In this document: positions 1-35,446 of the stretch, in pieces
Layout: each line of letters opens with the position of its first letter
How positions within the stretch are numbered: the first letter of the stretch is position 1
Assembly (NCBI GenBank): GCA_026023565.1
Contig: JAPETS010000044.1
Location: forward strand, 124,001 to 188,000
Reading direction: 5' to 3'
DNA length: 64,000 nt
DNA from: Cirrosporium novae-zelandiae
Lineage: Eukaryota
Notes under the pieces: generated by a model
Database searches by the model: none
What the model was told of the DNA's origin: nothing
The model's input: the letters and a program-made list of their open reading frames with translations, nothing else
Translations under genes and position numbers: made by a program

Positions 1-523
1 TGTATGTGGTGTTGCCCACATCCCACATGCCAATCTAATCCAATCCAATCCAATCCACCGTGCTGGACGATAGCTATTAATATTAAAATCAATGCTAATA
101 TCAGTATCAATATCTTTAATCCAGGCAACCTCTCGTGATCGATCTGTCGATTCAATTGATGCATGGGATGTAGAGATAGCTAGGTACGTAGGTAAGTAAA
201 GGGAGATAGATAGATAGGTAGATAATGATATACACGCACATACATACTTAGTACACGCATGCATGTGGATTAGCTCAAAGATACATTCATCCTCGTCCTC
301 GTCCTCGTCCTCGTCTTCGTCTTCGTCTTCGTCCTACTCCGTCTTCGTCCTATACTCTATCCTATAGAATTAGTTTTTCGATATTTTATCTCTCCTTCTC
401 TCTCCTCGTTCTTTCTTTCTTTCTCTTTGTTTTGTTTATTTATTATATTATAGGATATAAATTTCCTACCTGTACCACACTATATACACATCCTACACAT
501 ACCGACCCCCAAACCAACAAACC

Positions 524-2656
524 ATGTCCCCCACCACCACCACCATCACCACATCCGACAAAAAACCCCCTACCTCCCCCAAATTCAAATCTCCCTCTTC
601 AATCTCTGCCACTTCCCTCCCCACCGACATCGACATCGATGTCGATATCGCCGCCGCCTACGCTTCCGATATCACAACCTACATACCGCAAGAAGCGAAA
701 CGGTTACGATGGAAGCTGGATTTGAGATTGGTGCCGTTGTTGTGGTTTAATGTTACGTTGGGGGCTATGGATAAGGTCACGACTGCTACGGCGGCTTTGT
801 GAGTTTTTTTTTTGGTTTTGGTTTTTTGGGGGGGAGGGGAGTAAAGGGGAGAATGTGTGGCTGATGGTGGTGGTGAATAATAGATATGGTATGAGAGCCG
901 ATACGGGATTAGTGGGGGAGCAATATTCTTGGGTTGCGAGTGTTTTTTACGTATGTATGACCGACCCTAGGACCGTTATACCCCAATTTCGTTTTTGTAA
1001 ATTTTCGTTGAGATCCAAAATGAACACATGCACGTTTTTGGAATAACTTTGCTGACCCACTGTGCCCTTGCACTATCCATCCATACAGTTTGGCTATCTC
1101 ATCTGGTGTTTTCCCTCGGCAATGATTCTGCAGCGCCTTCCAATCGCCAAAACGATGGCAATAGCACAAGTAATCTGGGGTATTATCCTAATAGGGACGG
1201 GATTCGCGCAGAACTTTCCAACTATGATTGCGCTGAGGTTGTTGCTGGGAATTTTGGAGGCGCCGATTATTCCTGGGAATTTGTTGGTGCTTTCAATGTG
1301 GTATACTAGAAGGTGAGTTGGTTGTTCTGTTGTTGGCTTTCGATGGCTCTGTGCATGTGTGGTGGTGGTGGTGGAGATGTTAGTGCGGAGAATAAGAGGG
1401 TTGATGGTTTTTGGGTAGTGAACAATCGCTTCGTTATGGATTGATGTATACCGGGCTTTCGGTTTGTTTTACGGGCCCTATTGGTTATGCGTATGTGCTC
1501 CCTTATGTTGCATTCGCACTCCTTGCTTGTGTTAACATAATCAGTATTGGATTCATCCACGGCGATTCACCCGAGATATGGCGTATATTCTTCTGGATCA
1601 CCGGCGGTATGACGGTAGTGTGGTCTCTCGTTCTTGGCCTTTTCCTCCCCGATAACCCAGTCAAGGCGAAATTCCTCAGCGAGCGTGAAAAGGTTATTGC
1701 CATAGATCGAGTTCGAGTTAACCAGACAGGAATCGAGAATAAGAAATTTAAGAAGGCGCAATTTATCGAGGCTATGCTAGATCCAAAAACGTGGCTGATG
1801 TTTTTCTTTAATGTTTGGGTCAATGTTCCGAATGGAGGTCTTACGAATGTGAGAAGCCTGATAGTATACCTCTTTTCTTTTATCGAGAAGCTGATTGAAT
1901 CTGGATAGTTTTCTCCCTTGATCATTAAGGGGCTGGGCTATACTTCGCAGCGCTCTACTCTCCTGACAATGCCGTGCGGAATCATGCAGACAGTTTCCAG
2001 TTACCTCTGTAACGGAAGCGTCTTCCTGGCAGCAAAGTACTTACCCAAATTGCAGCTACGCGGCTGCATCATCATATTCGGCGAGCTTGTCGGGATGATT
2101 GCTTCTACTTTTCTATATACCCTTCCACTTAACAACCTACACGGTCGACTGGGCGCCATGTACGTCTCGTACTTTTACTTGGGACCTTATATCATCTCGC
2201 TCAGCTTGGTTGGCGCAAACGTCAGCGTAAGTCCACATCAATGCCCCTATCTCAGTGCTCTCGCTCACGTGGGTCTCTAGGGTCATACGAAGAAAGTCAC
2301 AGTCAATGCTATGATTTTCCTAGCTTACTGCATCTCTAACATCATAGGCCCGCAATTCTTCAAGTCCGATCAGGCACCGCTATATCCTTTAGGTATCGGA
2401 GCAATTTTGGGCTCATACGTGCTCTCGTTGACAACCATTATTCTTTATATGATGACTTGCTGGTTTGATAATAAGAGAAGAGATGCTAGGGATGCGGCCG
2501 CCGGAGAGAGATTGCATGCTGACACGGATTTTCAAGATTTGACGGATAAAGAAAACATTGTAAGTCCTCGCCTGGAAAGAAGAACTTTATGAAATGTTAT
2601 CGCCATTCAAATAAAAGCTAACTTCATTTGAACAGCATTTCCGATATCTATGGTGA
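524..2656 (+). CDS. MFS transporter, anion:cation symporter (allantoate permease/Dal5-like), multi-exon
   Basis: Spliced ORFs give KLDLRLVP, YSWVASVFY.FGYL, LRLLLGILEA, LPDNPVKAKFL, GHTKKVT, NIIGPQFF and DLTDKEN, typical Dal5-family motifs; GT-AG introns; stop TGA at 2654-2656. Confidence 0.9.
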
Positions 2657-3362
2657 AGGGGCTATAGATGATTAGTGATAGCAGCAATTCACGACTATCA
2701 TTTAGCTGGACCCTAATGGGATAGAAACGAAAAAATAGTCTACGGCGAACCAGGGGAATCGATAAGAGCCCCAAACTGAACTCTAGACCTTCAGAGACGT
2801 CGGATCTGTCCCAGGTAAACAACCCTCAAGTCAGATGTAGTAAGGTTATCAAATCGGCCGTGGCCCGAAAGCTGAAAGAATACCTTGACAAGAGTATATT
2901 TGGGAGAAATAGAGTACCATAGAGAAGTACCAGAGAGAGTCCGAGCTTAATATTGGGGGCTGTGCATATTAACTATCTACGAATCATAAAAAAAGATGCC
3001 AAAGCGTTAATCATACGTCCATAAAATATATGTTGTTGTGAATTCTGACCAAAGGACCTGGGTTACTGTGACGAGTTAGTAGGAAGCAGTAGGGACATAA
3101 TTACAGTAGCTTCGAGCTTAGAATAATCCCCACTAGGATATATTAAAGGCGCCTTGAACGATACTTCAGGCATTGAAATCTATATCATAATCACCAAAAG
3201 ATTTACCTAGATTGTTAGTGATATTCCAATCATTTTTTCATCCCAGTCATATATTCCGATATCCGAGGCTACTGTACACGCCAGTAATCGGTACTTGACA
3301 TGCTCCCTTTGGATGCGTCGAAGAAGCGGCCCTATTCCAAGAGTACATGCATGCAATATCAC

Positions 3363-5621
3363 TTACAAACGAGAGCTTCTCGTCGATCCACAGCAATCAC
3401 CCGTAACTTTACTAGTCGCAGCGTTGAAATCTTCGTACAACACGCTTTGGTTCTTGCTCTGTATGCTCTGCGGAACATCAAGAGCAGGATTCTGTTCGAA
3501 AAATCCAGCAGGCTTAAGGCTCACCATCATGGTATCGACAGGCATCACTGGGTAATCTTCTGGACGTGGATTATGTGTCAAGCTTATGCTATGCCAAATG
3601 ACAATGTCGGCATCCTCAGTCTTGTCTTTGCGGGCAGCCCATGTAGCCACATCACCCTTACGCCCCTCTGGAGATCCTGGGCCCTCGTCTTCAGGCAAGG
3701 ACTGATATGTATAATCACCTGCGGGGTACAGCTCGCCATCACGATAAGAGGTGACCCAAAACGGATGGCGTGCGTACTTGGCTCGACGAGCATGCCAAGA
3801 CGATGGGTGGGCTAGGAGCATTTGTTTGGCGGGACTGTGTATCGCATACGCCACCGGACGGCCAGTGACGGCATTAATTTTAGAAGGATTAATGATCTTG
3901 TGAACACGACTTGGTGCTGAATCTGAAAAGGAAGACGTTGACACTGGCCTCTTCTCTGTCATAAAACCAACGCCATAAAGATTATTCTCGTCCAAGGGCA
4001 TAGGAATTGAATCTTCCTCTATGAGGGTGTTCTGTTGGCCATCTATCGATGGATCGATTCGCAAACAGAAGACTTACGAACAACTCGTTAGTTTTTGTAT
4101 CAAAGAAGATGGTAGGAGCATACGAGTCTTACCATGCTGATGATATGGTGCCAAAACGCCTTTGTTAACATTCGTGCCCCATGGAACCTGGACCCCTGGG
4201 TCAATTGGGGCCGTAGAAAGGATCCCGGTGGCCTGGATTTGGTATTCCAAGCCAGCCGCCTGATCCAGATGCCAGGCAAAAATATAATCATAATTACCAA
4301 CTGTGATAATTGTTTGCAAGACCAGAACGCGGGAACGTGTTATGGAAATGAGACCATTGCGGGTATTAGTATGTTTCCAGCCAATGCCATTGTCAATCTC
4401 GTGCATGCAAACTGCATTTGGTTTCTCCACCGGATTACCATTAGAGTCGCTGACAACGAAAGAAAAATACTTGATGAGGCCCAAACAATCACATCCAAGC
4501 TTCAGGTTGTTCGCCGCAACACCAGCACCCACATCGCCAAAATCAAATACACTCTTTCTATGATATGGTGACCTGGGATCCCCGTATGGGACATACATCT
4601 CCGTTAAGCTAAGTCGGTGAAATAATTCGCGGCCGTCATAAGTCACGTCATGTAGAACCTAATGAACTATTAACTTTTACGATAAATCATGAAGGGCAAT
4701 GCATACCATTCCCTCACGCCAATTGAATCCTAGTCGAAACCTCCACTTTTGCCAAGTTATGAGCTGTCCATCTATCCCAAAAGATGCACCCTGTACCTGA
4801 TGAACAGTCAAGGGCTTGAGATCAGCACGTGGGGGGTTCGGTTGTAAGTCTTGATGGTATTCCTTTGCTACATGAGGTTCGTATTCGGAATCAGGGTTGG
4901 CTTGAGCGCCGGCGCCGGTTGGAAGACGTATAATATCGGTTAGTTCTTTAGTTTCGACGTCAAATATTGGGGAAAACTGAAGTGGGTGGTCATAGTGATT
5001 CGATGCTGGATGGTTAGTACTTGGGTTTCGAGTGTACAGATAGCACTACATGATTATTAGCAGTCTAACATATCTAGAAGAATTGGCATGATATACCTGT
5101 ATAAGGCGATGGCCCATATCACCATTGTCTCGCCCATATGACCAGGTATCACACACTACTTCTGTACCTTCGGGAAGTTTGAAGCGTTTGATTTCTTCCA
5201 AAACCTTGGGATGTTTAAGACACAGGTCTCTGATGACGACCAGCTCATCGATATCACCCTGGGCATGATAACGTTTGTCCAATAGTTCAATATGCTCAAT
5301 GCGCTTCGTTGACAAGTTGATCTGAGCCAAAAAAAGGTCAGCAGTTCCACGATGATAGTATAGCGCATTGGCACGCCGCTCCAGCAGTGGTCGATGTGAG
5401 GAGCCAGATCGTTCTGCCGTTAGGTATGGGACAAGTTGTTTTTTCGGCGGTTCAATGATGTTGATAAACTTGAAATGCAGGCTATGTTGTGATTCTTTAT
5501 TTTTCAGAAGGGTCGATATCTGAATCACCTCGCTTGCTGTCAATGGATCGAGAGGATGTCCTCCCATAGGAGCGGTAGGGGAGAGGCGTCGCAATGAGTT
5601 GGGTGGAACTTGTAATGCCAT
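3363..5621 (-). CDS. Copper amine oxidase (TPQ-dependent) with C-terminal peroxisomal PTS1 (-SRL)
   Basis: HPLDPLT N-terminus, NNLKLGCDCLG, TVGNYDYIF (TPQ consensus), HQH and THNPRPEDYPVMP copper-ligand motifs; 3 introns; ends SSRL; an alternative start at MGGHP (about 5567) is possible. Confidence 0.95.
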
Positions 5622-5729
5622 TGTATTTGAAATTCTGCTCTATACTCATCCATCTCCTCACAAGAGGGCGACAGATGAATTATTTCAACCATGATGAAAT
5701 ACTTGGTGAGTCAATAAGTGGGGGGTGGG

Positions 5730-5970
5730 GTAACGATAAAGATAACGTGGGGCCTGTTCCTGAGGCGGAAATGTCCTATTGATCTGCAGGGTGGAAGCTT
5801 GGACTTGCTATATGCGGAGTAGCCGGAGTTTAGGTTTTAGGTTGTTTCAAAGCTTCTGATTGGCGGTACGCTTATCTTATCTGTTTATAAAAATTACCTG
5901 CCGACGATAAGATGCGAAGTACGTCACTCCATTATCTGGCGTGCCCTTCCTATTTGGGTCTGATAGGTCC
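5730..5970. promoter_or_regulatory. Cluster of HGATAR (AreA/NIT2-type) sites plus a CGGAGT direct repeat upstream of the amine oxidase
   Basis: About 7 GATAA/TTATC/GATAG sites within about 230 bp (cgataaagataac, cttatcttatct, cgataag, ttatct, tgatag); CGGAGT at 5815 and 5824. Confidence 0.5.
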
Positions 5971-6044
5971 ACATTCTAGACAATCCAAATACTGGAGGAT
6001 TGAAAAAACCTAACAATTGATTTATAATATGAGATGCTAGCCAT

Positions 6045-7198
6045 TCAGAATATACCAACTAATGGATCTTTTTGATCAAAATCATAGGCGTTCCCAAACG
6101 GTTTATTGAGATAGCCCTCTTCAACACTTTTCGCGGGGATGAAGTCTGCTTGAATTTGTAGGTCTGATCCCTTCTCTTCTAATTCTGCCTTGAGCTCTTG
6201 TGCAAATTGGACCTTCATTTCGTTTCTGGGTGTATTGGAGGTTAGTTTCAACTTGGAGAAAGAAAACAAAATTCAAACATACCTATACCATGGTGCAAAA
6301 TGTATCATGGCCAACATAACCCTAACAGCTTCACTATAATTTGGCTTTCCTGCATGCCACAGCCTCAAATCCCTCACCACAATGCTTCCTTTTTTGACTA
6401 CCGGTTGACTCGGTGCTCTTTCTTCTCTCCTGTTCCTCAAAAGTTCTTCCTTAATCCTTCCGCTCGCCCGTTCTCCATGTGCTCCCTCCTGACAATTAAT
6501 TCCTGACCCTGTATGTGTGCCGAGCCAGACTTCGGTACTTCCGTTTTCAATGTTCATGTCTATGAGAGGAATGTTAATGACAAGAGCGAATGGGCAGCTG
6601 GGGTGATCAATGTCAGCATCTGAGTGAACAGGTTGGGATTGTGGGGGAGAGTTGGCAGCTGGGGGAAGTGCCGAGTTTCCAGAAACAAAGGAGAGGCGGG
6701 GTTTAGGACCAAGGACAGATGTTGTTACTTGTGTTGCGATAGGGTTGAGGAAAATGGAAGAATTGAAATAGGTAGGAGTCATCGGAGGGTCCTGTTGAAT
6801 GTTTCTATGTCATAACCAGGGAGTCAAAACTTCTGTGGTTATTGCAAGAGGGCAGATTCACAGCTGTAGAGCATGTGTTTGACGGACCCTTTATTGTAAT
6901 TGAATGGACCAGAGTCCCCCAGTGCTTGTAGCGTACGTGCATCCTGTACCATCTTTTCATTCAAGAAATCAAGGTCTTGATTCTCAAGAACGTTCTCAAG
7001 TACAACGAGTCCATCGCGGTGAATGGCTCGAGTTGCCAGTTCGAGGTTTTGCCATGTGAGACTGCCTGAGTCCTTCTCCTTCTGAGAAACTTGAACGGAT
7101 AATGGAATGGATGAGAGGACCCCTCGTGTATGACAATAATGGTCATATGATTTGGCTGTTCCTAGGAACGCTTTATTTAGTGGAAGTCTGGAGAACAT
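6045..7198 (-). CDS. PhyH-family 2OG/Fe(II) dioxygenase (kanamycin B dioxygenase-like fungal group)
   Basis: HRDGLVVLENV, QPVHSDAD (HxD), NGSTEVWLGTH, RDLRLWHAG (distal His), RVMLAMIHFAPWYR; 2 introns; N-terminus MFSRLPLNKAF resembles a mitochondrial presequence. Confidence 0.88.
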
Positions 7199-7766
7199 GA
7201 TGAAGTTGTGGTTAACCAGCAAGCTAGAAGAATGCAATAGTGGAGAATCATACACTCGTTTATTAGGGACTGGATAGTTCCCTTTATAGGTAATCAATTG
7301 AGTATATTCGTATTAAATATCCATTTTCTAATATGATTAAAGAAATTCGATCTAGATGAACCTTGGGGAATATTACGGGGGGGGTACCCATTAATCCTCG
7401 AATTATTCAAGGATAAAATGGTCAGTGCACGCTAACCTTGTTTAGCTAACTTCTATTATACAATTCGCTAAATTACCGAGATTTTCTTCTGAATGTTAAG
7501 AAAAGACTAAAACAACTGGAAAATACGGGTTATAATACAAACAACTAATACGCAGCTGACGCAGTGATATTTTTGGATTAACGAGTACATGCTCGCCTAC
7601 ACTAACCGTTAATAGCTAGCGTTAGCGAACTGCGGAGCGAGCATATAATGGGAACCTACTCGACCGTGGCAAGAGACATATCTTTTAAAACATTTCGTAA
7701 ATAGCATTCCCTAGCATTCCCACTTTATGAACTTTGAAACACGCTTCTATGGATACGTGATACCAA

Positions 7767-9518
7767 ATGCCGAGAAAGGCCCCTAAAAATTGTTTGTCAC
7801 TACCTCTCTTATGCTGCCTGTAACTATCAAAGGCTAACCATGTAATTGCAGCATGGTAGGCTGTCTCAGTCCATTTCATAGCGAAGGAAATGGCTCAAAA
7901 TAACGGACAGTGCAACATGTCGCCACCGAAAGGTCAAGTGTACGTTTTCGTTCCATAGCAAGCCCAATTTGGGTCATGGGTTAAGGACTTCTAACTAAAC
8001 ATCCAGGCGACGGACTTACCCCAGTATGCCAGAACTGCATCCGGCTGCAATTAAGCTGCAAGAGACCTGGGCCAGAGTTCAAGTTCATTATTCATACCGA
8101 CAACCCATCTCGTCGGGATGTACTAGAGACTCCACCATCCCCCCCTACTTCTGAGGGAAGTGTAGCTCCATCCAAGGCAATCCCAAAATCACCCGAAGAT
8201 GGGCTAGGACAGGCCACATACCTAGCCTCTTTAAAACCGAGGCTGGCTCTCCAACACTCCACCATTGTCCGCTTTTTCCATCATTATGTCAATGTTCTCG
8301 CTCCGTGGTATGATTTGAACGATTCTAGTAGAACTTTCGGTACAGTTGTACCAATAAGAGCCCTAGATACGCCTATTTTATTCAAGGCTATCATTGCATT
8401 TTCTGCCAGTCATTGGTCCATAGAAGATTTGGCTCCCCCTTTAGCACAAGCATTCCACACAGCTTGTGTCAAAGATCTATTGGCTGTCATGAGGAATCCG
8501 CACGAGTCCCATGGCGATTACTTGGCAGCTACCTGTCTACTCCGATCATATGAGATACTTAATGGTATGGTTGAGAAATATTATTAATTCTGTTTCTGAC
8601 ATCTCGCAGGTGATACTAGAGGAAATCAACGACACCTACTTGGGGCTTATTCATTTGCTGTAACAGGAAACATTGATCTATCAACCTGGGGTCTTCTACA
8701 AGCTGGTGTTTGGAACTATCTTCGTGAAGAAATTACCGTAGGCCTAGAGTGCCGTCGACCAGTCAGAATTAGTACCGACTTTCCAGATTTCCAACCTGAT
8801 GCTAATGTTCAAGACGACATGAAGGCAAATCTCATTACATATATCTTGGCTCGAATTATAAATTTCTGTTTTCACGGCCATCACGATTCGCCTCTCCCAA
8901 TCCAGAAGGAAAGGATTGCTGAATGGGAAGGCCTGCGGATGAAGCTTACACTTTGGACGCAGAATCTGCCTTCAAGCTTTGAACCGATCTCAACTGCCTG
9001 TGCCACTGAAAATTTGTTTCCATCGTTTTGGATGCTTGCTCCATGGCATGGTAAGATAAAGTTTTCTTAACAAACTAGGGGCGTCCCCCGACGGTCCAAA
9101 TAGCTGATATATTAGTAGTCAGTTCATTACAATATGCTTCAATAGCCGAGATTCTGTTAGCGCTCTATGATCCTCTATACCAAGAGAGCCTTGAACCTTC
9201 CATCCGGCAAGTATCTTTGGATTTTATCCAAGAACATGTACTACGAGTTTGTGGGCTTGCATGGACAAACAAAGATGTCGCCGCCAGAGTCAACGCATTT
9301 GGCCCTCTATCTTTCTGTGGGTCTCTGATTAGTTGATATATTGGTAGAAAAACTGACTGAATCTTACAATAGGTGGTCGGTATTTGATCCACAAAGACCA
9401 GCAGCAATTCTTGGAAAAAATGCTTCTCGATTTTACAGTCGATACAGCTTGGCCAGTCCATTGCATTATCAGTGATCTCAAAGAATGCTGGGCTAGAAAA
9501 GAAGCTGCTTATGACTGA
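7767..9518 (+). CDS. Zn(II)2Cys6 transcription factor
   Basis: Spliced N-terminus MPRKAPKNSCATCRHRKVKCDGLTPVCQNCIRLQLSC (exons 7767-7791, 7852-7855, 7911-7939, 8007-); later LAPWYDLND, LAATCLLRSYE, WNYLREEI, VNAFGPLSFC; stop at 9516-9518. Confidence 0.88.
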
Positions 9519-10783
9519 GATATTGTGCGCAATTACCAAAATCTCATTTTATAAAAAAAGCACAGGACTAGCAGAAACGGAGCTTTAATTCTCTATGCAA
9601 AAGTCCAGGACGACCTATCTTTGGTCTCCTATGCTCACCCGAGCCAAGCCAAAGGTCCGAATCCCTTTGCCTTGAGAGAGGATTTTCGAATGACCATTGA
9701 ATGTGGAAGTGGGATTCAGTGAGGAGCGAGAGCAAGTGAGCAAATTGGTTTATATACAAAATAGTGGGTTCCCGCAGTACCACATACTGTACAGACCACT
9801 GGTTAAAACTTTGATGCCCAGTCAACAGAAAGATTCTCGAAGCATCAATCAACCAGCTTTGTGGAACCACTTCGAGTGAGAATTTCCATATTACGATAAT
9901 TAATTATCACCATGATTATTGTTTCTTGGTATAGTAAAGCGATGAGGCGCAGTATACCGGCAAGTTCCTAATCCACGTAGCTACCAGGGATGTTATTTCT
10001 TCCCCACTAACTGATCAACCATCTAAGCTTTTTTTGATAAGATAAGGCTTGGATGTGGTTTAAATTTCATAGGCCTCTGAGAATGTGTAACCTTTCTCCC
10101 CAAATAAATATCTCTGTTGAAGATCCGAGCCATGGACTGGGATTTTAAGTCGCAGAGGGAACGAGGAACTCGATCCTTCAGCCTTAGTGTCTTGTCGACC
10201 AGTCGCTTACTTTTTCAACTCTCCGAGTGGACATTCTATTCGCTATCGATCCCTACAGGTTTCCCCTCCAGGAAGAATACGAGTCAATCGAACCAAACCC
10301 CACAACTCCATCATTTAGCTTAATTTTGATCTAATTCGTTCGCACCAATGGGTATGAGGATTATCCAGAAGCCCATCGCAACCTACCCCCCCATCCCAAG
10401 AATTCTTAGCCGACCGGAGATTTCACTTGGAACTATGCTACATTTCTGTCGGCGAGGCCTCGTCATAACACTGAAAGTCCTAGACCTTGGGGGGCTTTGA
10501 ACGGGACTACCTACGGGGTGTGACGGCAGAAGAACACTAGCGCTCTTGGGAGTCGAACCCAACCTGGTATTTATGGCATCCGACAACTGCAACATCTCCT
10601 GTTACTTTTCTGATAATACCCCTATGTGAATATGAAGAGGGTTGATGACCTTTTGACAAAATAAACAGCAGATCAAATTCAAATGATATTGTAAAGATAC
10701 CGTCAATTGTAGGTCATTAGAAGATGTCTAAAGCACCACTAAAAGCTACCCATGATAGACGACTCCTACACATCCGGCTTAGA

Positions 10784-10883
10784 CAGCATTTTCGATGGAC
10801 CAGACCGATCAGACCGACCCCCTTAGTCTGGTCGGTCTAAGGTCTATAGACCGTCTATTTAGTCTGGTCCATCGACAACGCTG
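10784..10883. mobile_element. 100-bp hAT-type MITE with 8-bp TSD
   Basis: Imperfect TIRs cagcattttcgatggaccagac / gtctggtccatcgacaacgctg, flanked by the direct repeat GGCTTAGA (10776-10783 and 10884-10891). Confidence 0.85.
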
Positions 10884-13656
10884 GGCTTAGAATTTCCTTT
10901 TTTTGTTCCTTATATCAATAGGTCTCTCCCATTATTTTAGCTAATATTTATTTTGTTTGCTTGTACGTTTATTATTAGTTTTATATCCTTATTATTTTCA
11001 TCGCCTATCCATTTATCCATCGCCATAACTCTCGGTAGCAGATGATGATGTCGTCTCTCTTCAGCAGTGACCCCTTAATTCCCTTAGCCCCCCCTCCCCT
11101 TAACCCTACAACCACCGTTTCGACCCTAATAACTCTTATATCCCTTACCTCTTTCCCAGCATTACTCCTAGCAAAGAATAAAATGAAATAAGAATAATAA
11201 ATCCCCAGTAAACTATAAATACTAGAACCTATATCCAAACACCCATCCATCCATCCATGATTATATCACCCTGCACAAGCCGGCCCCCATGATAAACAAT
11301 AACCCAATTATCCTACATACATACATACATATCCATACATATATCCAAACAACCATGACCTTCCTTCACAACTAACAATCTAATAATCTAAACCAGAACT
11401 TTTTAAAACCCGCTGCTGACATCAGCACTTCACTCTCCTCTCCTCCAGCTAGATCGGTCCAACTCCAACCCCAGAACCGACTTATCAAATTTACCCCACC
11501 CCACCCCACCCATCCCCCAGATCCACCAACCCAGAAAAAACAACTACCCCAAACTCCGCTTGTTACAAATTTGTCTATTTAGGCTGGTTGGAGTAGTTTT
11601 GCAATTAAAACACAGACCTCGCCTCACTGACGGGTATATCTAATCTACTGTATAGGTAGTTAGTTATTTCTTAGACTTAGTAAATAAGAATCTTTCTTAT
11701 AAACCCACACAGACGCACACATCCTTTGTTGTATAACTTGCCTTCTTATAACTAATACTGTTGCAGAGATAGAATATTGATTTTAGTATGTTGCCCTCCG
11801 AGGCCCCCTCGAACCGGTGTGTAGGGGATGTTATAGTCTATATTCGATGTTATATAGAAGATGGAAGGTCAAAAGGTCAAAGAAAGAAGCCATGGTCAGG
11901 TCACTCGGTAGCGTAATTCTGGTAAACATCCATATTGCGTACCTTCATGCTCCATATCCTATTACTATAGCAAATACATAAATTTGAATTATGAAGAGTG
12001 GTATATATACTATTAGCCGATTTTGTCCTTTTTTTTATGGAATGGAATATATATCCCCTGGGTTGGTTTTTAGGGTTTGTGTGAAATGTGGGAGAAAGGG
12101 AATCTAGGGGGGAGTTTCTAAGGGGGGGGGGTAATATGGTAATTAGGTATCTAACCTTGCCTCTATTTAATGCACAACGACGAACAACAACAACGACTAA
12201 TGACCAAAAGAATCGGCTAGATCTTAGTTGACCCAAAGTTTAGGTAAAATCTTATCCACGTAGGTAGATATATATATATATATATTTTATTTTATTTTAG
12301 ATTAGATTGGAAAATAATAAGTTAAATGTCAGTGGGATTGTGTAGAGATGATAGAAAAAAAAGATTGGAAGTGCGTTAGAAGGCAAACCAACACTTCTCC
12401 CCTACCTATGTAACCAACTCAAAAAAACGACATAGGATATCCCTTACTTGAGTTGGATAGGATAGGATACCCGGTGTTAGGATATATCTATAGGCTAGCT
12501 ACGCCATAATAGAGTAAAAGTGAGTGAGTGAGTCAGTGGGGGGTTTTTAAAAAATACTTTTTCTAAAGTGTTCTGTGTTTTGTATGGGTTATTATATATT
12601 ATTTACGTCGACCGACCAGACGGTTTTGTCGATTCCTTTTCCTTCCCTTCCCTTCCTTTCCTCGACAACCCTAACCACCCAAATTCCCCCTCCCTCCACA
12701 CATACCCCAGCACATCCTCAAATGCCCCCTACCTGTATCTCCAATATAGCTTTTCTATATTCTTCTTCGCAGACGTAGGGGTCGGGGATGGGGAGCTTGG
12801 GGGCCTTTGGGGATAGGGAGGAGGGGGTACAGGAGGAAATTATGGGGATTTGAGGTAGAGGAAAGTGGTGATTAGGGGGAATGGGAGGGTAAAGTGGTGG
12901 TGGTGGCGAGGTGGGTGGTTAGGGGAGGGGGGGAGCGGAAGAGGGGGAAGATGTCTGTGAAATGTTTCCCCTGTGGTGGGGTGGGAGTGTTATGTTTGGG
13001 GGGTTGGGGTTGATCTTGGTCTTGATGGGTGGGATTGGGGATGTACTGGTATCGGATGGTTTTCCTATATCGCGATTTGGATTTGATCAGTTCTCCGTTT
13101 GTCATCGCCATTGCTCTTAAGCAGTTAGGATGAGGTTTATCTGTTACTAATGACTAGGCTTCTTTTTTTTTTCTCCTTGGGGTTGCGGTTTTCGATGGAG
13201 TCTTGGGAAATCTATGCCCCCGCCCATTAACGTGGGAGTGGATAAGAGGAGTTTGTTGATATACATATTAGCTTGGGTTCCAGTGAGCAGGATGTGTTTG
13301 GATTATTTATCGGAAACTTTTGTTTGGGAATCCTTTGTTGGTTATATTTGCTGTGGTCCCTTTGCTTTGGGCTTTATTAGGGGAGGGGGGGAGTAGGAAG
13401 TACGGAGATAGGCGATGTTCTTGATGGATGATATCTGATATGCTAGATGGCTGTTAGATAGATTTTAGTGACTTTATTCTTGGTTTCGATGGGATATGGA
13501 ATAGTCTCATATACGAATCGACTATTTTCCATTTCAATTAGATAAAGCCTGGTCTTTGAAATATCTAGTCTATGTTTATCGATCTCTGTCTCCGATTCGC
13601 TTATCGGTTGGAGGTAGTCTAGTGATGCGTATGTTGAAATAGCGATATATATATTT

Positions 13657-15679: not shown

Positions 15680-17487
15680 GATGGCTTCTGAAACGCCCAA
15701 TGAGGTTCTCGAATGCCCATCTCGGAGTGATGGAAAATACCAGCCGTCGATGTTAAGAATGCCGCTGGTCTTAAGAAGCTGCAAGAGTTAATCGATGACG
15801 AAGTAGGCCAGATTGCGGTCGAGGCATTAGCAAGCGGCGCTGCAGATCCAGCAGAGGCAAAGAAAGTTTCGAGAAAGATAGACACCCACCTCCTCCCTTT
15901 TCCTTGCATTACTTATGGTAATTAACTTAACTTTCTGTTTGAGGTAGGTAATCTTTCTGAATGTTCGCGGAGTATAGGGTTGCCTTAAGCTCATCCTCAA
16001 TTTAGTATTATCGATGATAACCATCTACATGGGCAGCAATTCTCTTAGTGCAGGTAAGACCCATAATATATCACGCATCATGTCGTGTTTCAAATTACTA
16101 AATCTCTCAAGTTCAATCTTTTATTTGGATACCTTGTTGCGGAGTATCCCGGCGTGGCATTACTGCAACGCTTTCCGGTTGCGAAATTTCTAGGCTATAA
16201 TATAGTTGCCTGGGGAGCAATATTGATGATCACAGCATCATGTAGTTCCTTCGGAGGCCTAGTGACTATTTGATTTTTCCTAGGTGCCACCGAAGCTACC
16301 ATAAATTCTGGCTTCATCACCCTTACAGCCATATTCTACACCCGACCTGAGCAAGCCGGGCGACCATCTGTATAAGTATCATGCATGAGCATCTTCAATG
16401 TAATCAATTCTATGTTAATGTATAGCCTCGATCACATTTTTGGAAGCCTCTCGCCATGGAAATATATATTCCTCGTTCCCGGTACCGTGACCATTATTTA
16501 GGGTTGTCTATTCATACAGAAAATACCAGATAATCCAGTAACTGCCAAATGGTTAACGCAAAGTAAGAAGATCGTCGCTATTCAGCGGCTTGCAGACAAC
16601 AAGACCGGGACCAAGACGCACAGTCGTCAAGTGCCCTAACCGATCCTAAGATCATTGTTTTAGCACTGACGGCATTCGTTAATGCAATGGTGGGAGGTTC
16701 GCTGATATTCTCTTCAATTATTATGGAAGGCCTCGGCTTTACAAACCTTTAAGTCGCACTTTTGAACATGCTATACTGCACCATTGAAACGGCTTTCGCG
16801 TTACTGGCAGTTTACATCATACAAAGAGTCCCTGACAGCCGACTTATTTGCGGTGCGATGTCTATGTTACCGGATATTGCGGAGAAAGTGATAGTCAACG
16901 GCATTCCTAGCAACAATGGCTAGGGTCGCCTTATTGGTGTCTGGTTCATTACTGCATATCCAGTTGGCTTTCAGGTTCTTCTTGGTTTGATTGCATCGAA
17001 TATTGCTGGAAGTACTAAACGGACTGTTGCATCGGCGATGATTTTTATCATTTATTGTTCTGGGCAAATCTCTGGGAAGGATCTTCTTATGTATAATATC
17101 AATTGTATCAGACTCCACGTCTAATGCCATGTGATGTGCAAGACCCCAGTACTTCAAATCTAGCGAAGCTCCTGCCTACCGCAGTAGCATCGTAGCAATA
17201 CTCTGCGCGTTTTGCATTCATCTTGCTCTGAATGTCATGCTCCAGATTCTCTACGGTTTGGAAAACAAGAAACGGGACAAGGCTTTGTCATGCAGGAGCA
17301 TAGAGGAGTTGAAAGCAATGAAACGGTTGTCAAATATCCAAGGATTTGAAAACGTATCGGATGGACACAATGTAAGTTCTGGGCCCTCTTTCATGACTAG
17401 TTGTGATAAGGCAGGCTTTGTGCCGATACAACGCACACTAACATACTCTTTCTCTGGTTATAGACCATGTTCCGCTATACCCTTTAA
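15680..17487 (+). pseudogene. Dal5-like MFS permease pseudogene
   Basis: KIDTHLLP, LLQRFPVAKFLG, PDNPVTAKWL, SNIAGSTKRT and PQYFKS motifs interrupted by in-frame stops (TAG 16046, TGA 16271, TAG 16499, TAA 16750, TAG 16921) and deletions. Confidence 0.85.
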
Positions 17488-27021: not shown

Positions 27022-30000
27022 CTACGTCGCCCTCTTACTCCTCTTAGTCCTCAACTTCATCAACACATAAACCATCGCATACCCCCCCACCGCAAACCCC
27101 GTGACAATCCCCGCATCTCTCCACCCATACCCATACTCCCCCAAATTAATCGTATACAAATAATCCGCCCCCGTCCGATACTAACACACCCTACACTGCC
27201 CCGTAGCCTTAGGGTTAGTAAGATTCGACCTCGCCCCCAAAGTTTGCATATAAACAGCGAGATAATCCCCACAGGTAAAGTTTTCGGGCGGGTTAAAGAT
27301 TGCGAATTCGGATTCTTTGCAAGCGACGGGGGTGTCGAAGGAGGTGAAGGTTAGGAGGGAACCCATTAGGTAGTTGAAGGGATTTAGGTAGTAGATCCAG
27401 TAGCGCCAGAAGGCTTGGATTTGGGAGTAGGGGACCAGGACGCCGCAGAAGGAGATTAGGGTTCCGATGACGACGGGGTTTGCGAGGGCTGCGAAGACCG
27501 CGTTGGGCGCGTAGGCGGCTATGGATTGGCCGATGGATGTGTAGACGAATTCGTAGAGGAGCATTACGAATAGGGAGGCGCCGACTTTGGCGGTTGGGGT
27601 TGGGAACCCCACCGTGTAGTACCAACATGCGAAGTAGAGCACGGCGCAGATGCAGAGGTAGGGGAATTCGGAGACGATGAGACCCGTGACAAAGGCTTTC
27701 CAGGAATACATTTTCGATTTCTTCTCCCGGGTTTCGTAGATGTCGCGGCGTTCGATGAATAAAGGTTGGAGCTGGGCGATCACCCCGGGCGCGACGAATA
27801 TGAACATGAAGATGGCGAAGAGGCGTTGCTGGAGGTCGGCGACCGAGTTTCCGATCTTCCAGAAGGTGAAGCCGTTGAATAGGGCGGTTACTATGTGCAG
27901 CAAGATTTTGTTGTTTATGTAGCCCGTGTTGCGGAAGAGGGCGATGTTCATACGGCGAGTGACTAGTTTTGTTTGTTCCCATAGTGGCATGGCGAATTCG
28001 AGGCTGTCGTTTTGCGTCTGGCTTTCTCTGGAGGCGGCTTCTTGGTTAATGCGGTCTAATTCTTCCATCATGGCTTTGTACTCTGGTGACTCGAGCCAGA
28101 TTTGGTTCCAGTCTTTGTCTTGGGATAGTGGGCCCGATACCACGTCTATCATGTGCTCCGCCGGATTGGTATCTTTGGGACAAGGTGCATCATATCTGGC
28201 AAAATAGTCCTTCAGCGTTGCTGCATTATCCCCTATTTCACCATAGTATACAGTTTTTCCCCCATATGCCAGTAGCAATAGAGTATCAAACTGAGTAAAC
28301 AATTGAGCACTAGGCTGGTGGATGGTTACCAAAACTGCTTGACCGACATCCGCAAGCTTTCTCAAGAAGCGAACGATGTTGAAAGCTGCCTGGCCGTCAA
28401 GACCAGATGTTGGTTCGTCGAGGAAAATCAAGATACTTGGTTTGGAGACAAGTTCCACGCCGATCGTCAATCTCTTTCGTTGCTCTACGGATAGACCAAC
28501 CCCAGACTGTCCAATTAATGTATTTTCGATATCGTGCATTTCCAATAGGTCGATGATGGTATCGACATATTTGAGCTTTTCTTCCCGGGGGATGCTTCTG
28601 GACTGTCGAAGGAGGGCGGAGAATTCCAAGGCTTCTCTGACTGTTGCTAGTGGCTCATGAACATCAAGCTGCTCACAATACCCAGTCGATCGTTGAAAGC
28701 TGACCGAAAGCTCTCGCCCATCCACCAAAATTGTGCCATGAATTGTGCCTTCGGTCTTGCGTTGAGCAAGGACATCTAGCAATGTGGTCTTTCCAGCTCC
28801 AGATGATCCCATGAGAGCCCCTAACTGTCCGGGCTTGACCCATCCGTGTACATTGTCCAGAAGTTTTCGATCACCTTGTGAGGTCTTGACGATATATGAA
28901 AGGTTCTTCCACGTGAATACAGAGATATTCTGAACCAGGTCCTTATCGGCACTATCCGTGTTTTCTGGACACGAGCTGTTTGATTCATAGATTTGTTTCT
29001 CCGGATAGCCTTGGGATTCTTCATCTTGAGCCAAACCGTGTTTGTTCTTCACTTTCTCTTGTGGAATGAGCAGATATCCCGTTTTCCCGGCCGTCTCCTT
29101 CCAGGAGTTAGTGGCAATAATGGTGATCACCACAAACAGCACCCAGAAAGCCCTAACGTTGTTAGTTAAAATATATTACCATAACACAGAGCATAGAGCG
29201 CTTAGCTGTGCATTATCATAGGTAAAAGGAATACATACCATAGAATCCCAAGGTTCCGCCAAATATGGGAATGAGAGTATGATAGGTACGCTAGATAGTT
29301 GTCTCCTATAAGACTAGTTGCTCCTGGGAGAGCTACTGGGGTACCAGCACAGGCTTGATAAGCAGCATTCGTATATGTTGGACCATTCGGAACAAGATTC
29401 ACTCCCACACAAGGTATAATCCGGTCATGAAGCTCGTTGGCAAGGATTGCTTCGAATCCATATGCAAGAGGATCAATCCAGAATATCCAGACCTAAATTA
29501 TTAAGTGAGCTAATGATCCTAAAAAACAAAGATGCTCTTTGAGACATACAAACCAGGGATGCATTTCCGGCTTCGAAATTATGTATCCAGTATATGAGGC
29601 AAGAGTCACGATTGCCAGCCCAGAAACCTTACTAGCAGCATCAAAGGTCCTGAAAGCTGCACCGATAGCTCTGAATAAAGCAGTCATACACATGGTCGTG
29701 GCGAAGACAAGGATCCAAAATGTAAAAAATGCACTGGCAGTCTGTTTAAGACCGGCCATGAAGTAGAGCACAAGCGAGAAATGCGAGATTTGTACTAGAA
29801 GTACGGGAATGTCTGCTGCGATTTGGGCAATGCAGAACGCCGCTGGATGATATAGGGCAAAAGACTTGTGTTTGGCAAGGACTGGACGACCAGAGAAGGA
29901 ATCGGTTACTTCGGACATGGCGAGAAGACTGTTGAAGATGAGAGCCAAAAAGAGTGCTCCGGCTTTCAGGAACAGACCTAAAGAGGTTTCAGGAGCGTTG

Positions 30001-31469
30001 TAAAATAAAGACCCGGAAATCAAAGCCTGAGCGAGCGTCGAGAACTGCTTAATAAGGAATGTCGATTTGTCACCCCACAGGATTTGGTATTGTCGAATAA
30101 CACATGTTTTGACTTGTGTTGCAAATTTGACGGTTAACGGCGAGGTCTTGGGTAGGCTCTTATGTTTTTCAGATTGAACTCGCTCGCGAAAATTGTCCGT
30201 TCGTATCTTTGCCACGTCTGTGGTTGGGTAGTCATATTCTACCTCCATCGCAGTTCTGATACTTGACTGTTGATATCGTTCACGAATATCGTCTGCGGTC
30301 TTCGGAAACTTGTCCTCAAAGCCCTCCCTGATTACTCGCTCAGTGGGAACTGTCACACCTGTCAGAAAATCCGCAACATTTGCTCCGTCTCGGCAGACAA
30401 AGCCAAGCTCTTCCATAAATGGCCGTGCTTCTTTCAGAGGCCCATAATAGATCTCCTTGCCTTCGTCGAGGAGTAGGACCTTATCAAAGAGATTATAAAT
30501 GCCATTTCCGGCTTGATACAAGGTCACGATAGAAGTAAGCCCAAGAATATCTGTCAGTGCTCGAATCGCCTTTGTGTATTCCAGTGCTGTGCTTGCATCT
30601 AGACCTCTGGTGCTATTATCCCAGCAAAACACGCTAGCCCTTGTAGCCAGAGTTTCAATAATGCTGACCCGTTTTCGTTCGCCGCCGGAAACGCCACGCA
30701 CAAACTCGTTGCCAACTTTTGTACCGGAAGTATGAAAAATACTCATGGATTCTAACAGGAAATTTCGCATCTCACTTTGATAATGGGCTCGGCTCTGTAC
30801 AATAGGCGGAAGATTGAACGGTACTTTCATCCGAGTTGCGAAGTCCATTGTCTGGCCAACTGTAAGGGTAGGGAAGAAAAGTTCCTCCTCGGTATTCATC
30901 ACGATCTGTCCACGGTAATTTTTGGCCGCTTTATGGTCCAGAGAACCAAACATGATATCACCTTTGACTTCAGCATAACCATTTCTTCTATTCGCAAGCA
31001 TCTTCAATAGAGTCGTACATCCAGCCCCTGGGCGACCAAGAACTAGGAGCATTTCTCCGGGTTTCACGCATCCATGACTATTCTCAAGGATCGTCCTGAG
31101 AGATGTAGCATGTCTAGCGTCTGTGATGATACGTGGTATATTAAATTGTGACACAAAATTCTCGTTGATGGCCGCATCAGCACCAATTCCCTTGACAGTC
31201 AAGTTCTTCCAGGTAACACCAAGTTTTCGAGTCTTGACATGGTCCTTCTCGTCTTGTTCCCGATAAGCCTTGACGTCCGGCATTAGCTTCCAATCGGCCG
31301 CCTTGCTAATAGGCGTTTCCTGTTCCTCATATTCATCATATCGAGTGCGACTCCGAATAGGGGCAATGAAATCAGAGAGGGCCCGAGAGGCATGAGACAG
31401 CGTCCGCACAATGCTGGAGCTGCGATGGTGGCTGATGGGGGCAAAGCCTTCAGACTCGTTGTTTGCCAT
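27022..31469 (-). CDS. PDR-type full-size ABCG transporter (NBD-TMD)2 with a premature stop at 27181-27183
   Basis: [63 protein letters not shown]; 2 introns; the C-terminal frame continues past TAG (C*YRTGADYL...GWRDAGI...LMKLRTK) to a stop at 27022. Confidence 0.92.
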
Positions 31470-33176
31470 AGGCGGCGACAAAGTGTGTTGTTGGATCGAA
31501 AGGGAGGGACAGACTCAAAGCATAGAAAAGAACAAACATAGAATTTTGAAGAATACAAAGATGATAACAGCTGGGTGAAGAAAGTCCTGGTAGAACAGTA
31601 GATAAATTCACCCTTGTCAGTTCGCTTCGCCTCTTTTCATTGACTGGATTTAAGATGTCGGAACACCTCCGAAGCCAGCGGGTTCAACCCGACGACCACA
31701 TCCTTGAACCACAGCCCCAGGTTTCTGCCTCATTTGCACTTTTCACTAATGCGTGGCTCAGTGGTTGTCTCGGAGCGTGGTGTGACAATAATACTAGGAA
31801 ATTTCTGTGGAGAAAAATGCGGCGGTCACACTAAGTTCATTCTTATGTATGAGCGGTTCAGATACAAGGTCGATAACAGCACTTTCAAGACAGAAAGAAT
31901 ATGCAAAACCTAATAGTCGTCCGTCTGAGGGCATACCGAATAAAGACAGTCACCGCCAGAAAGAATAGCTGCAATACTTGACACTCTAGTCACGTTACCA
32001 TGCGGTCTGAAATTTCCAAACTGCCTCATCAAAGTACGCTAAACCCTCTGCCAGTTTAACCAACACACATATAAATTTCAAAGAACAAGGTAAAAGAACT
32101 AATAGAATCGAGCAGGTCGCAATAGCAAAGAAAATGTCAGATTCGGATCATGAGCCAAACGAAAAACACGCAGATGCGTGCGGCCGGTGGGCACAAGGCG
32201 GCTAGAGTGGTATCCTGACAGGTTCACTACTGCCCTTGCCCTTCCATCGACTAACCAATTCATCCAGGTAATGTACAAGTCGTTGTACATTGTCTAGGGA
32301 ATGCTACAGACGTCGAACACGAACCCTTCGGTGACAGTGGTATAAATGTTTGGGGTGAACTCAGTAAGCATTTACGCATGATGCTTCTGCTCCTGTTGCT
32401 CTTACTTCTCAGTCTTGCTGTCAAACTTCTAGATGCGACAGATTTCCCGATAGTTTTAGAGTTGACGATCCGTTGATAACGAAATACACTCCTCCCGTCT
32501 TGGCCTTTAATCTTTTCTGCAAATTACTACGAACATGGTCAACAGCACTTTCAATATATATTATTTCGTGATAATAATACGTGTCATATTGGCTACTCCG
32601 AGTTCTGTTGCTTTTTTTAACAAGAGTCCCTTGTCAGGCCGTTTTGTAAGGGCGACACCTCCGTTATAGGTAATGTGGTAGGAATAACAACACCACCAAA
32701 AAATAAATGAAATATCTTGGTATTCTATAATAATACTTTAAAGGTAACTCCTATAATCATAAAAGAGCGAAGGCGCGTCGCGTTAGTTAATCACATGGGA
32801 GTAATATACGCGTACTCGAGTAGCCAAGGCTAAAATACCCCGGCTGTGTTTTCTTGTAAGGATATATTGATTTTCTAGCATATTCTGTGCTAAAACTATT
32901 TAGGTACATAATATAGAATAGCATATTTTTCATAGGTTTAAATCTATATCGTTACGCAAAATAACAAGGCCAAGGCTGATATTAAGAAATGTAGCTATTC
33001 CGTGATACGCCTAGACCATGAGTGAGGCGCAGGATCTTCCTCGCAAGGCTGCGACACCGATAATACGAAATCCGACCTACAACATATATATCAACAGGAT
33101 ATTTTGTTTCACACAAATCTTTCTAGGAAATTCAACCCGTGAATTATTCATACTTATCTTTTCAAACTTCACTGTG

Positions 33177-34019: not shown

Positions 34020-35446
34020 CATTTCAGAGAAATTATGAGATGGAGGACTCCCTCTCGTGGAACTTGTGGGGGGGGCAAGCAAACATAGTCACGAAAATAT
34101 AAAAAAATAAAATGATTTTCGTTATTCCATATTGTTATCCCCCCCCCTCTAGCTCCTAAAATCTAAAAGGAAAAGCATATTATAAAATAAATATATATGC
34201 TCCACTTAAGTGCTTATAATTTAAATTCATGCATAATTAAGTAAATAAAACAAAAGAGGGGTTTCCATACATTCAATATCAAAACTCAAAACTCAAGCCC
34301 CCCTTAACTTTAACTCTCCCTAAGGCCCGAGGGCCCGAAGGGGGCCGAACCCTAAGATGTCTAGAGTAAACGCCTTGAGCTAGATTCAGTTTCGTATTTT
34401 ATATAGATATGAAAAGATCATTCAGACTATTGTAGATACTTTAAGTTGGTTTGTGGGGAGGTTCAAGGCTGGATGGATATTGTGTAGAAGGTATCGGATG
34501 CATGCGCATTAAATACCAAGAGCGCCTTGCTAGTGATTGGCAACAGTCACACTCACGCTGGTATATCAGTGCTTCGTTTTGAAGGTTGGTTACCACATTG
34601 ACTGGGTTGATTGGGTTGGTTAGTGTATGTATATATTAAAATAAAGTCTTTGCCAATCATTAATTATCAATCACCTATATTATTTAACTAAACCTTAATA
34701 ATATTCTTAGAACAAAATTAGCGCCGGCCGGCTCGGTTGATGATAAACGATAACTTTATTTACACCTCCTCTTCCTTTTTCCTGTTCTTTCGTTGTTTTT
34801 TTATTATACACCTCCATACCTATAAGTTATATATTAATTTGATCCCTAAACAATTTATAGAGTTGAGTAAGGCAGGTACGGCTTTTTTTAAGAGGGTTAG
34901 ATGTTGCATTCGTGGGGTGGTGGGGTTAGCTACTACTGTGTGGCTAAGATTGTAAAATTCACTAAGCAGTTTTTCAAGTCCGTGGACTTTGCTTTCATCC
35001 AGATGGAAAAACTCTGATATTAGACTCGGACTTATCTACGCTCTCTCTTGCATTAATTCAACTGGATGACAAAAGCTTTCGGGAAGTATTTATACTTTTC
35101 ACTATCTTCCGTGGATGGATGCACGATCTGCCATCGTTGAAACTATGTTCTGTTCCTCTCGTAATATATGATACTTTTATGCACCTTTCTTTTTAAGTTC
35201 CTGAGCGCTGAGTGGAGGAGCGTTAGTGCTATAATGGAGGATTGTTACCTATTTCTTTCATACTAGATAGCTTGATCACGGGTCCCCCTAAGATTTAGTG
35301 CTTGGCCCTTCGACCATGTCAGCTTTACTTTACCCCAACGTCCATGCTCTATCCTAAAACTCCCTTCCCCATGTTCACTACTTAGACTTAACTTGTGTTA
35401 CCGTTTCACACCCTCTTCAACATAAATATTCCTTCTGTGCAACACA

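Follow-up and report, generated by a model that had tools for sequence, protein, structure and literature searches.

A zinc-cluster regulator and a KanJ-like dioxygenase form a conserved gene pair next to a copper amine oxidase and a permease in Cirrosporium novae-zelandiae

Introduction

The kanamycin B dioxygenase KanJ of Streptomyces kanamyceticus (PDB 6s0r-6s0w, 7cl2-7cl6) is encoded within an aminoglycoside cluster, and its chemistry is described as an oxidative deamination at C2', followed by the reductase KanK (PMC13707489). Here, we analyzed a stretch of 64,000 nucleotides (64 kb; hereafter the window) from Cirrosporium novae-zelandiae, a fungus of the class Xylobotryomycetes, in which a gene for a KanJ-like Fe(II)/2-oxoglutarate (2OG) dioxygenase is one of four contiguous genes at positions 524-9518. 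The others encode a Zn2Cys6 regulator on one side and, on the other, a copper amine oxidase and a permease. The window dioxygenase is predicted to share with KanJ the PhyH-type double-stranded beta-helix fold, and the H-x-D...H iron ligands and the aligned arginine are conserved. Unlike KanJ, however, it is a eukaryotic protein with a presequence-like extension, it is partnered by a fungal zinc-cluster regulator, and it has no KanK-like reductase gene adjacent to it.

A similar logic is found in the hxn nicotinate cluster of Aspergillus nidulans, a catabolic cluster under AreA control which combines a pathway-specific factor and AreA with major facilitator superfamily (MFS) permeases and a 2OG dioxygenase (PMC5746545). 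HxnR is a Cys2His2 factor and HxnY belongs to PF14226/PF03171 (PMC5746545), whereas the window encodes a Zn2Cys6 factor and a PhyH protein. As both the dioxygenase family and the regulator type differ, we rejected hxn as the identity of the locus. The hxn genes are also demonstrably co-induced and syntenic, whereas only two of the four window genes are syntenic. The oxidase has its counterparts in the peroxisomal copper amine oxidases of yeasts and other fungi (3loy; Hansenula/Pichia 2oov/3sx1), with which it shares the Cu_amine_oxid domain, the N-Y-D-Y motif, an H-x-H plus a distal histidine, and a C-terminus resembling a peroxisomal targeting signal type 1 (PTS1). It is an ordinary member of this group, without any difference of substance, and falls into a distinct orthologue group.

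A preliminary description of the window had interpreted the four genes as one self-regulated amine-catabolic pathway. Our comparison argues, with a probability of roughly 0.68, for two units lying side by side, namely a conserved regulator-dioxygenase module and an ordinary nitrogen-scavenging oxidase and permease. The meeting of both units, seen only in this Xylobotryomycetes genome, is then most likely a local arrangement without a common pathway. In the full-text literature, with subscription-only papers outside the coverage of the search, no paper was found on a fungal KanJ-like family or on this combination of genes.

Results

The regulator and the dioxygenase genes travel together across fungi

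The dioxygenase gene (6045-7198, minus strand; three exons, 337 aa) and the regulator gene (7767-9518, plus strand; seven exons, 466 aa) are divergently oriented, in agreement with the preliminary description. They are separated by a common promoter region (7199-7766) that places 568 bp between both ATGs. The same two genes are neighbors in other fungi. They bear adjacent locus tags in the record corresponding to the window (M1834_006907/006908) and in Coleophoma (BP6252_01971/01972). In Xylona, Amylocarpus (42 kb), Mollisia scopiformis, Xylogone, Stipitochalara, Lophium and one ENA contig (4,263 bp), the two genes are listed on contigs of equal length in bp, and these seven further pairs likely share one contig each. 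In addition, the two genes occur as fused annotations. Nine such models with the Fungal_trans_2 domain (PF11951) are present among the 120 listed dioxygenase relatives, and P0146 of Fusarium zealandicum, found among the regulator matches, is a dioxygenase-carrying fusion as well. In 12 fused models (11 from Colletotrichum, Diaporthe and Exophiala, plus Aureobasidium P0009), the regulator part matches the window regulator with E values from 1e-30 to 5e-67, and two further extended models, P0087 and P0100, match it weakly (E about 1e-4). Another PF11951 factor encoded in the same window gave an E value of 0.15.

A metagenomic sample was drawn from contigs of the Joint Genome Institute (JGI). From 159 stretches encoding a dioxygenase relative, 80 were kept and searched with the window proteins by tblastn; removal of 13 near-duplicates (L005, L014, L020, L021, L043, L055, L056, L059, L060, L068, L072, L073 and L080) left 67 loci. 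The regulator adjoins the dioxygenase in 15 of the 80 loci and in 13 of the 67 non-redundant ones. The orientation of these 13 pairs is divergent (6), convergent (4) or tandem (3), with gaps of 69-982 bp. When the count was restricted to non-redundant loci whose flanks reach 1.5 kb or more on one side or both, the regulator was present in 12 of 36. Altogether, the pair was found in Leotiomycetes, Sordariomycetes, Eurotiomycetes, Dothideomycetes and Xylobotryomycetes. Linkage of the two genes is frequent, not universal, and the earlier designation of the regulator as 'dedicated' is borne out in that it travels with the dioxygenase across fungi.

The dioxygenase resembles KanJ in sequence and predicted fold

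The three exons of the dioxygenase gene (7198-6888, 6804-6283 and 6225-6045, minus strand) reproduce the database protein P0001 exactly, and the product contains a PhyH domain (PF05721, E 3.3e-10). By sequence, KanJ was the only strong match among solved structures (E 3.7e-31), the next match reaching 0.011. An AlphaFold2 model built on 40 relatives had a mean predicted local distance difference test score (pLDDT) of 90.1 and a predicted template modeling score (pTM) of 0.88, with residues 1-3 and 8-24 being disordered. When this model was used for a Foldseek search, KanJ chains occupied ranks 1-34 (E 9.6e-29; TM 0.86 normalized to KanJ) at an identity of about 32% over the full length, while the next family followed at E 2.1e-14. 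The KanJ likeness proposed in the preliminary description is thus strong by sequence as well as by predicted fold. Residues H164, D166, H254 and R265 are the same in all 40 relatives and align with the H-L-D, the W-H-R-G and the arginine of KanJ; we take the H-x-D...H residues to be the iron triad and the arginine to bind 2OG. The alignment with KanJ also contains common blocks beyond the metal ligands, such as QQDPP and SGN. Fungal relatives of the dioxygenase are 64-77% identical on the central exon, a degree of conservation more in keeping with primary or widely shared metabolism than with antibiotic tailoring. Among the open reading frames (ORFs) of the four-gene stretch and its flank, we found no reductase or dehydrogenase domain that would indicate a KanK-like partner.

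The N-terminus of the dioxygenase had been described as presequence-like, and its basic extension of about 24 residues turned out to be a family trait. An extension of at least 16 residues with at least two basic residues is present in 27 of the 40 aligned relatives, and 23 of these 27 extensions are free of acidic residues. From its composition, the extension resembles a mitochondrial presequence, suggesting that the protein may be imported into mitochondria.

The regulator contains a conserved micro-exon of four nucleotides

The regulator is encoded on the plus strand by seven exons (7767-7791, 7852-7855, 7911-7939, 8007-8564, 8610-9050, 9119-9316 and 9373-9518), which together give an open model and of which the second, CATG, is a micro-exon of 4 nt. 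One exon matches Fungal_trans_2 with an E value of 4e-08, and PF11951 is also precomputed for the public model of the protein, P0121. With the micro-exon included, the regulator has a canonical six-cysteine cluster, CX2CX6CX6CX2CX6C, at residues 10-37. This full cluster arises only if 7852-7855 is spliced in. The micro-exon supplies parts of the serine codon and of the first cysteine codon, and read-through leads to a false S-x-T-C with serine instead of the first cysteine. The introns around the micro-exon are all of the GT-AG type and have good branch sites. The orthologues of Xylona (P0123), Mollisia (P0130) and Amylocarpus (P0134) start with M-P-R, five residues and S/A-C-x-T-C; the N-terminus of the window regulator obtained by joining the 25-nt exon, CATG and 7911-7939 matches this pattern exactly. 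P0121, by comparison, starts at an internal ATG and is devoid of the first three cysteines; from residue 7 on it equals our model. We also considered that the regulator may be a frameshifted pseudogene, with the ATG at 7890 lying out of frame with the zinc cluster; this was rejected on the basis of the orthologue N-termini and the conserved micro-exon.

The micro-exon was surveyed in 15 sequences, the window and 14 loci, in 13 of which the C-x-x-R-K-x-K stretch of the cluster was visible. An AG|Y acceptor within the first cysteine codon is present in 12 of these 13 regulator sequences, the remaining one, L045, being intronless at this position. Eight sequences (the window, L002, L006, L010, L019, L037, L042 and L071) have a 25-nt exon followed by a 4-nt exon (CATG, CTTG or GCTG), and in all eight this layout gives an open start of the form M-P/A... 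S/R/A-C-x-T-C. We conclude that the regulator is intact and that the micro-exon is old, conserved and missed by annotation pipelines. The micro-exon would also explain many public models that come without PF00172 or with internal ATG starts, such as P0121 and its paralogue P0122, P0125, and the fusions of Colletotrichum and Exophiala. The paralogue P0122 (M1834_006423) is located on another contig of the same metagenome-assembled genome (MAG) and is 52% identical to the exon query and 54% over the full length.

The four genes are intact and contiguous

The stretch 524-9518 extends from the ATG of the permease (524) to the stop of the regulator (9518) and consists of four intact, intron-containing ascomycete genes. 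The fungal character of the window is evident from short GT-AG introns that break the ORFs and from several encoded Zn2Cys6 factors. Exon models were assembled from frame-preserving GT-AG junctions, and the resulting proteins are 100% identical to Cirrosporium novae-zelandiae MAG records (locus tags M1834_006906 to 006908). As the preliminary description had it, all four genes are in place and intact after intron removal, and all four identities hold when judged by Pfam and solved-structure matches. The intergenic gaps, taken from the coordinates of the parts, amount to 423-706 bp. In a separate assembly, a single contig of 28,826 bp covers the window from 66 to 10571 with zero differences, which shows that the four genes are truly contiguous in this sample and were not joined chimerically. 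As this contig was built from the same reads (one DNA run, possibly the source), it does not count as independent sampling.

The oxidase and the permease were not found beside the pair in other fungi

The copper amine oxidase gene (3363-5621, minus strand; 699 aa) has four exons (5621-5097, 5045-4707, 4658-4133 and 4072-3363), and the model is identical to the database protein P0170. Three consecutive exons span positions 2-407 of the 407 positions of the Cu_amine_oxid profile (PF01179; E 6e-10, 5.5e-73 and 1.3e-54). The best solved relative is the yeast copper amine oxidase 3loy, with E values of 6.5e-58 and 1.6e-46 for two exons; this enzyme prefers benzylamine, and a literature search on it found no paper. 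The N-Y-D-Y motif is kept as N-Y-[DE]-Y in 37 of 37 relatives (the window protein counted), the H-Q-H of the window protein aligns to H-Q-H in 3loy, and a distal T-H-x-P-R-x-E-D block aligns to 3loy as well. We take N-Y-[DE]-Y to be the site of the precursor tyrosine of topaquinone (TPQ), and H-x-H and the distal histidine to be the copper ligands. The C-terminal tripeptide is -SRL. This PTS1-type signal, already claimed in the preliminary description, recurs in the family: 25 of the 37 relatives, again with the window protein included, end in [SAP][KR]L, six in further x-[KM]-[LI] forms and six in neither. With PTS1-type ends in 25 relatives and related forms in six more, peroxisomal targeting appears as a family trait, and the window oxidase is accordingly predicted to be peroxisomal. 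Its orthologue group (P0171-P0206) is delimited by 56-74% identity on the last exon, paralogous fungal oxidases beyond the group reaching 55% or less.

The permease gene (524-2656, plus strand; 519 aa) has eight frame-keeping exons with GT-AG junctions (524-798, 884-950, 1089-1312, 1419-1490, 1545-1848, 1909-2226, 2281-2559 and 2636-2656, stop included), and after splicing the reading frame runs uninterrupted from the start codon to the stop. The exons were scanned singly, which accounts for MFS_1 scores below the Pfam cut-off: two single exons gave E values of 2.8e-07 and 1.1e-04, and one exon reached 30.2 bits compared to a cut-off of 33.4. In a crude hydropathy scan, eight strong peaks were found under a strict threshold. 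In the protein atlas, the permease fell into unnamed or MFS clusters only. Besides the MFS_1 matches, its likeness to the anion:cation symporter (ACS) family consists in the D-galactonate transporter DgoT (6e9n), the sole significant solved relative, which matched exon 3 with an E value of 9.7e-05. Both DgoT and the Dal5-type fungal permeases belong to this family of the MFS, and the DgoT match would fit such a placement; the ACS/Dal5 label is a tentative one.

Neither gene was seen beside the dioxygenase in the other fungi compared. By tblastn, the oxidase was found near dioxygenase relatives in 0 of the 80 metagenomic loci, and the same was true for the permease (0 of 80). When the flanking ORFs were clustered and the longer loci scanned with Pfam, no other neighbor emerged that recurs across lineages, and no oxidase domain is fused to any of the listed dioxygenase relatives. 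Four named genomes have the oxidase orthologue on another contig than the dioxygenase or the regulator. These are Xylona heveae (oxidase on a contig of 661,600 bp, dioxygenase or regulator on one of 1,905,886 bp), Amylocarpus (206,743 and 42,240 bp, respectively), Hyaloscypha variabilis (3,198,509 and 2,824,414 bp) and Mollisiaceae sp., where the oxidase contig has 477,432 bp and the regulator contig 386,182 bp. Thus, the genes that the preliminary description had grouped with the pair, the oxidase and the permease, are not co-located with it in these loci, and the oxidase is not in these four genomes.

The oxidase promoter differs from that of the pair in GATA content

HGATAR is the AreA site in Aspergillus. 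Seven such sites (at 5734, 5740, 5877, 5882, 5905, 5937 and 5961) lie in the 440 bp preceding the oxidase ATG, all of them within the oxidase promoter region 5622-6044, which is at the same time the region 3' of the dioxygenase gene. The sites are non-repetitive and include two close pairs. A count of seven compares to a mean of 1.7, belongs to the top 0.5% of windows of the same size in the 64 kb, and was reached in 0 of 500 shuffles; the promoter is therefore dense in GATA sites, as the preliminary description had noted. The intergenic region between dioxygenase and regulator (7201-7766, 566 bp scanned), in contrast, contains no HGATAR site, the mean of the window being 2.2. The 523 bp upstream of the permease also contain seven HGATAR sites, but this enrichment was not counted as four of them derive from a (GATA)n microsatellite. 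The microsatellite lies at about 200-225, and a trinucleotide repeat (CGT-CCT/CTT type, with Asp/Glu runs on the other strand) follows at about 290-345; these repeats inflate simple GATA counts upstream of the permease.

The divergent promoter of the window was further compared with six orthologous divergent promoters. No CGG/CCG dyad was common to at least six of the seven in this underpowered set, and among k-mers only the start-codon region of the regulator itself exceeded the null. From the density of sites, the oxidase is probably under general nitrogen control of the AreA type, and the GATA pattern gives no sign that it shares regulation with the dioxygenase-regulator pair.

Gene contexts of related dioxygenases

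At three metagenomic loci (L067, 10137-12917; L068; L077, 809-9028), a KanJ-like paralogue, 47-50% identical to that of the window, accompanies a flavin amine oxidase gene (PF01593). A large NPHP3_N/NLR-like gene is also present at these loci, which represent two gene orders in two related metagenomic fungal lineages. Between the lineages of L067/L068 and L077, the flavin oxidase is 55-61% and the NLR-like gene 52% identical. At L071 (526-11266), the neighbors of the regulator-dioxygenase pair are an Aa_trans amino-acid transporter, an ornithine-cyclodeaminase/mu-crystallin gene and another PhyH gene, all in one row. This may be a larger cluster for nitrogen metabolism, and it may point to a substrate of the amino-acid type.

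Relatives were also found in bacteria. A KanJ-like gene whose product is about 42% identical to the fungal one is located at L074, 9983-12020 (equal to L081, 6001-8038, of a Chthonomonas MAG), and a zinc-dependent alcohol dehydrogenase gene follows 89 bp on, on the same strand, in a KanJ/KanK-like layout outside an aminoglycoside cluster. Two other bacterial relatives, L086 and L088, adjoin enolase-superfamily genes. A scan of prokaryote genomes with the fungal dioxygenase alignment gave 56 pattern matches, with no relatives among them. When scanned with the L074 member, these genomes yielded 11 loci in Armatimonadota, Verrucomicrobia, Latescibacterota and a Propionibacteriaceae MAG; no substrate-naming neighbor was consistent across the 11 loci. 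The contexts at L067/L077, at L071 and in Chthonomonas keep an amine or amino-acid substrate plausible for the dioxygenase; they do not tie the window oxidase to the pair.

Two units side by side or one pathway

If two units indeed lie side by side, a small-molecule inducer would activate the regulator, which in turn would drive the adjoining dioxygenase gene from the common promoter. The dioxygenase, probably imported into mitochondria via its N-terminal presequence, would use Fe(II), 2OG and O2 to oxidize a C-H beside an N or O function of a small metabolite. By analogy to KanJ, an amine on a secondary carbon might be converted to a ketone and ammonia by oxidative deamination, hydroxylation being the main alternative. 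The peroxisomal TPQ copper amine oxidase, with the permease alongside, would turn primary amines into aldehyde, ammonia and H2O2, and would be controlled by a general nitrogen GATA factor of the AreA type and not by the neighboring regulator.

Several observations weigh against this interpretation. In Coleophoma cylindrospora (3,254,335 bp) and Diplodia seriata (4,268,993 bp), the contigs listed for oxidase and dioxygenase are equal in bp; the oxidase orthologues are P0171 and P0196, and the Diplodia contig carries BK809_0006773. The two genes may thus share one multi-megabase contig in these fungi, where a wider juxtaposition would be possible; the Coleophoma oxidase is the best-scoring orthologue (70% identity). 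The Xylobotryomycetes are a poorly sampled class. Most metagenomic loci are short, only 28 of the 67 having at least 2.5 kb on even one side, and of the 14 non-redundant loci flanked by 2.5 kb or more on each side, three have the regulator (3 of 7 at an identity of at least 55%). Finally, the linkage of a paralogous KanJ-like gene to a flavin amine oxidase at L067/L068 and L077 hints that such dioxygenases can work together with amine oxidases.

This last point and the Coleophoma contig would equally speak for the four genes acting together as a catabolic cluster that is specific to the lineage, controlled by the regulator and directed at an imported amine, in which the oxidase would act on amino groups at primary carbons in the peroxisome and the KanJ-like enzyme on those at secondary carbons in the mitochondrion. 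The tight packing of the genes on a single verified contig would be in line with such a division of labor, as would the proximity of two chemically complementary deaminating enzymes; a chance neighbor from a family as small as the copper amine oxidases should, by reasoning and not by calculation, be rare a priori. We nevertheless consider one common cluster improbable. Oxidase and permease are each absent from all 80 loci, the oxidase is on other contigs in the four named genomes, and seven GATA sites in its promoter stand against none in that of the pair. The different predicted compartments would require transport of an intermediate, and no common promoter motif was found, although this is a weak test. 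A four-gene pathway would, if true, be a new two-compartment fungal route of amine catabolism; the evidence does not support it. Even less probable, in our view, is a broader version, in which dioxygenase and regulator would constitute a widespread and hitherto undescribed fungal system for the oxidative deamination of secondary-carbon amines and would have been joined here with oxidase and permease into a nascent two-compartment cluster. Such a cluster would remove amino groups of either kind from a single polyamine-like compound taken up by the cell, the secondary-carbon chemistry being beyond copper amine oxidases, and candidate substrates would be amino sugars or aminocyclitols, sec-alkyl amines, or the alpha-amine of a basic amino acid.

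The reading of two units leaves room for a different reaction of the dioxygenase. It may be a hydroxylase or another oxidizing enzyme with a non-amine or amino-acid-type substrate, so that its likeness to KanJ would reflect fold and cofactor only. The PhyH family includes many hydroxylases, the identity to KanJ is just about 32%, and the window is devoid of a gene for a KanK-like reductase. The neighbors of the bacterial relatives are mixed as well, with a zinc-dependent dehydrogenase in Chthonomonas and enolase-superfamily genes in two of seven further loci, and at L071 the pair is accompanied by an amino-acid transporter, the ornithine-cyclodeaminase/mu-crystallin gene and a second PhyH gene. 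However, KanJ is by far the closest solved protein, separated by 14 orders of magnitude from the next family in the Foldseek search, and the blocks common to both proteins reach beyond the metal ligands. We regard a mere likeness of fold and cofactor as a tentative and rather unlikely alternative, albeit one to be reckoned with. That all adjacencies, including that of regulator and dioxygenase, reflect neutral synteny without functional coupling appears very improbable. Zn2Cys6 factors are very numerous in Pezizomycotina genomes, and the regulator is absent at 11 of the 14 well-flanked loci. Yet the pair survives rearrangement into divergent, convergent and both tandem orientations, it persists across five classes (Leotio-, Sordario-, Eurotio-, Dothideo- and Xylobotryomycetes), and the partner is always the same regulator family and not just any zinc-cluster factor. 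What stands is a highly conserved fungal KanJ homologue beside the same family of zinc-cluster regulators in many of the fungi examined, and this pair provides a testable handle on a piece of fungal nitrogen or mitochondrial metabolism.

Surroundings of the four genes in the window

Beyond the regulator, a repeat region is found at 10537-11264, where contigs break and their summed depth climbs from 354 to about 2,000-4,800; one contig skips 234 bases (10583-10818). The repeat region is followed by a C-rich stretch with a GC skew of -0.61 at 11001-11500. Further on, the window encodes an adenosine/adenine-deaminase-like protein (PF00962; 13446-14646, minus strand) and, about 1.2 kb away on the plus strand, another ACS-type MFS permease (15848-17374), which is 27-28% identical to the permease at 524-2656. 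Lying 4 kb past the regulator, these two genes may form one more small pair for nitrogen salvage.

The remainder of the window contains a second PF11951 zinc-cluster factor (55765-57888, minus strand), an O-methyltransferase (35426-36688, plus strand), an ABC transporter of the PDR type (27184-31514, minus strand) and a second PhyH gene (60946-61581, minus strand). The latter belongs to another subfamily and gave no tblastn match with the KanJ-like protein. This stretch of the chromosome is generally rich in genes of accessory metabolism.

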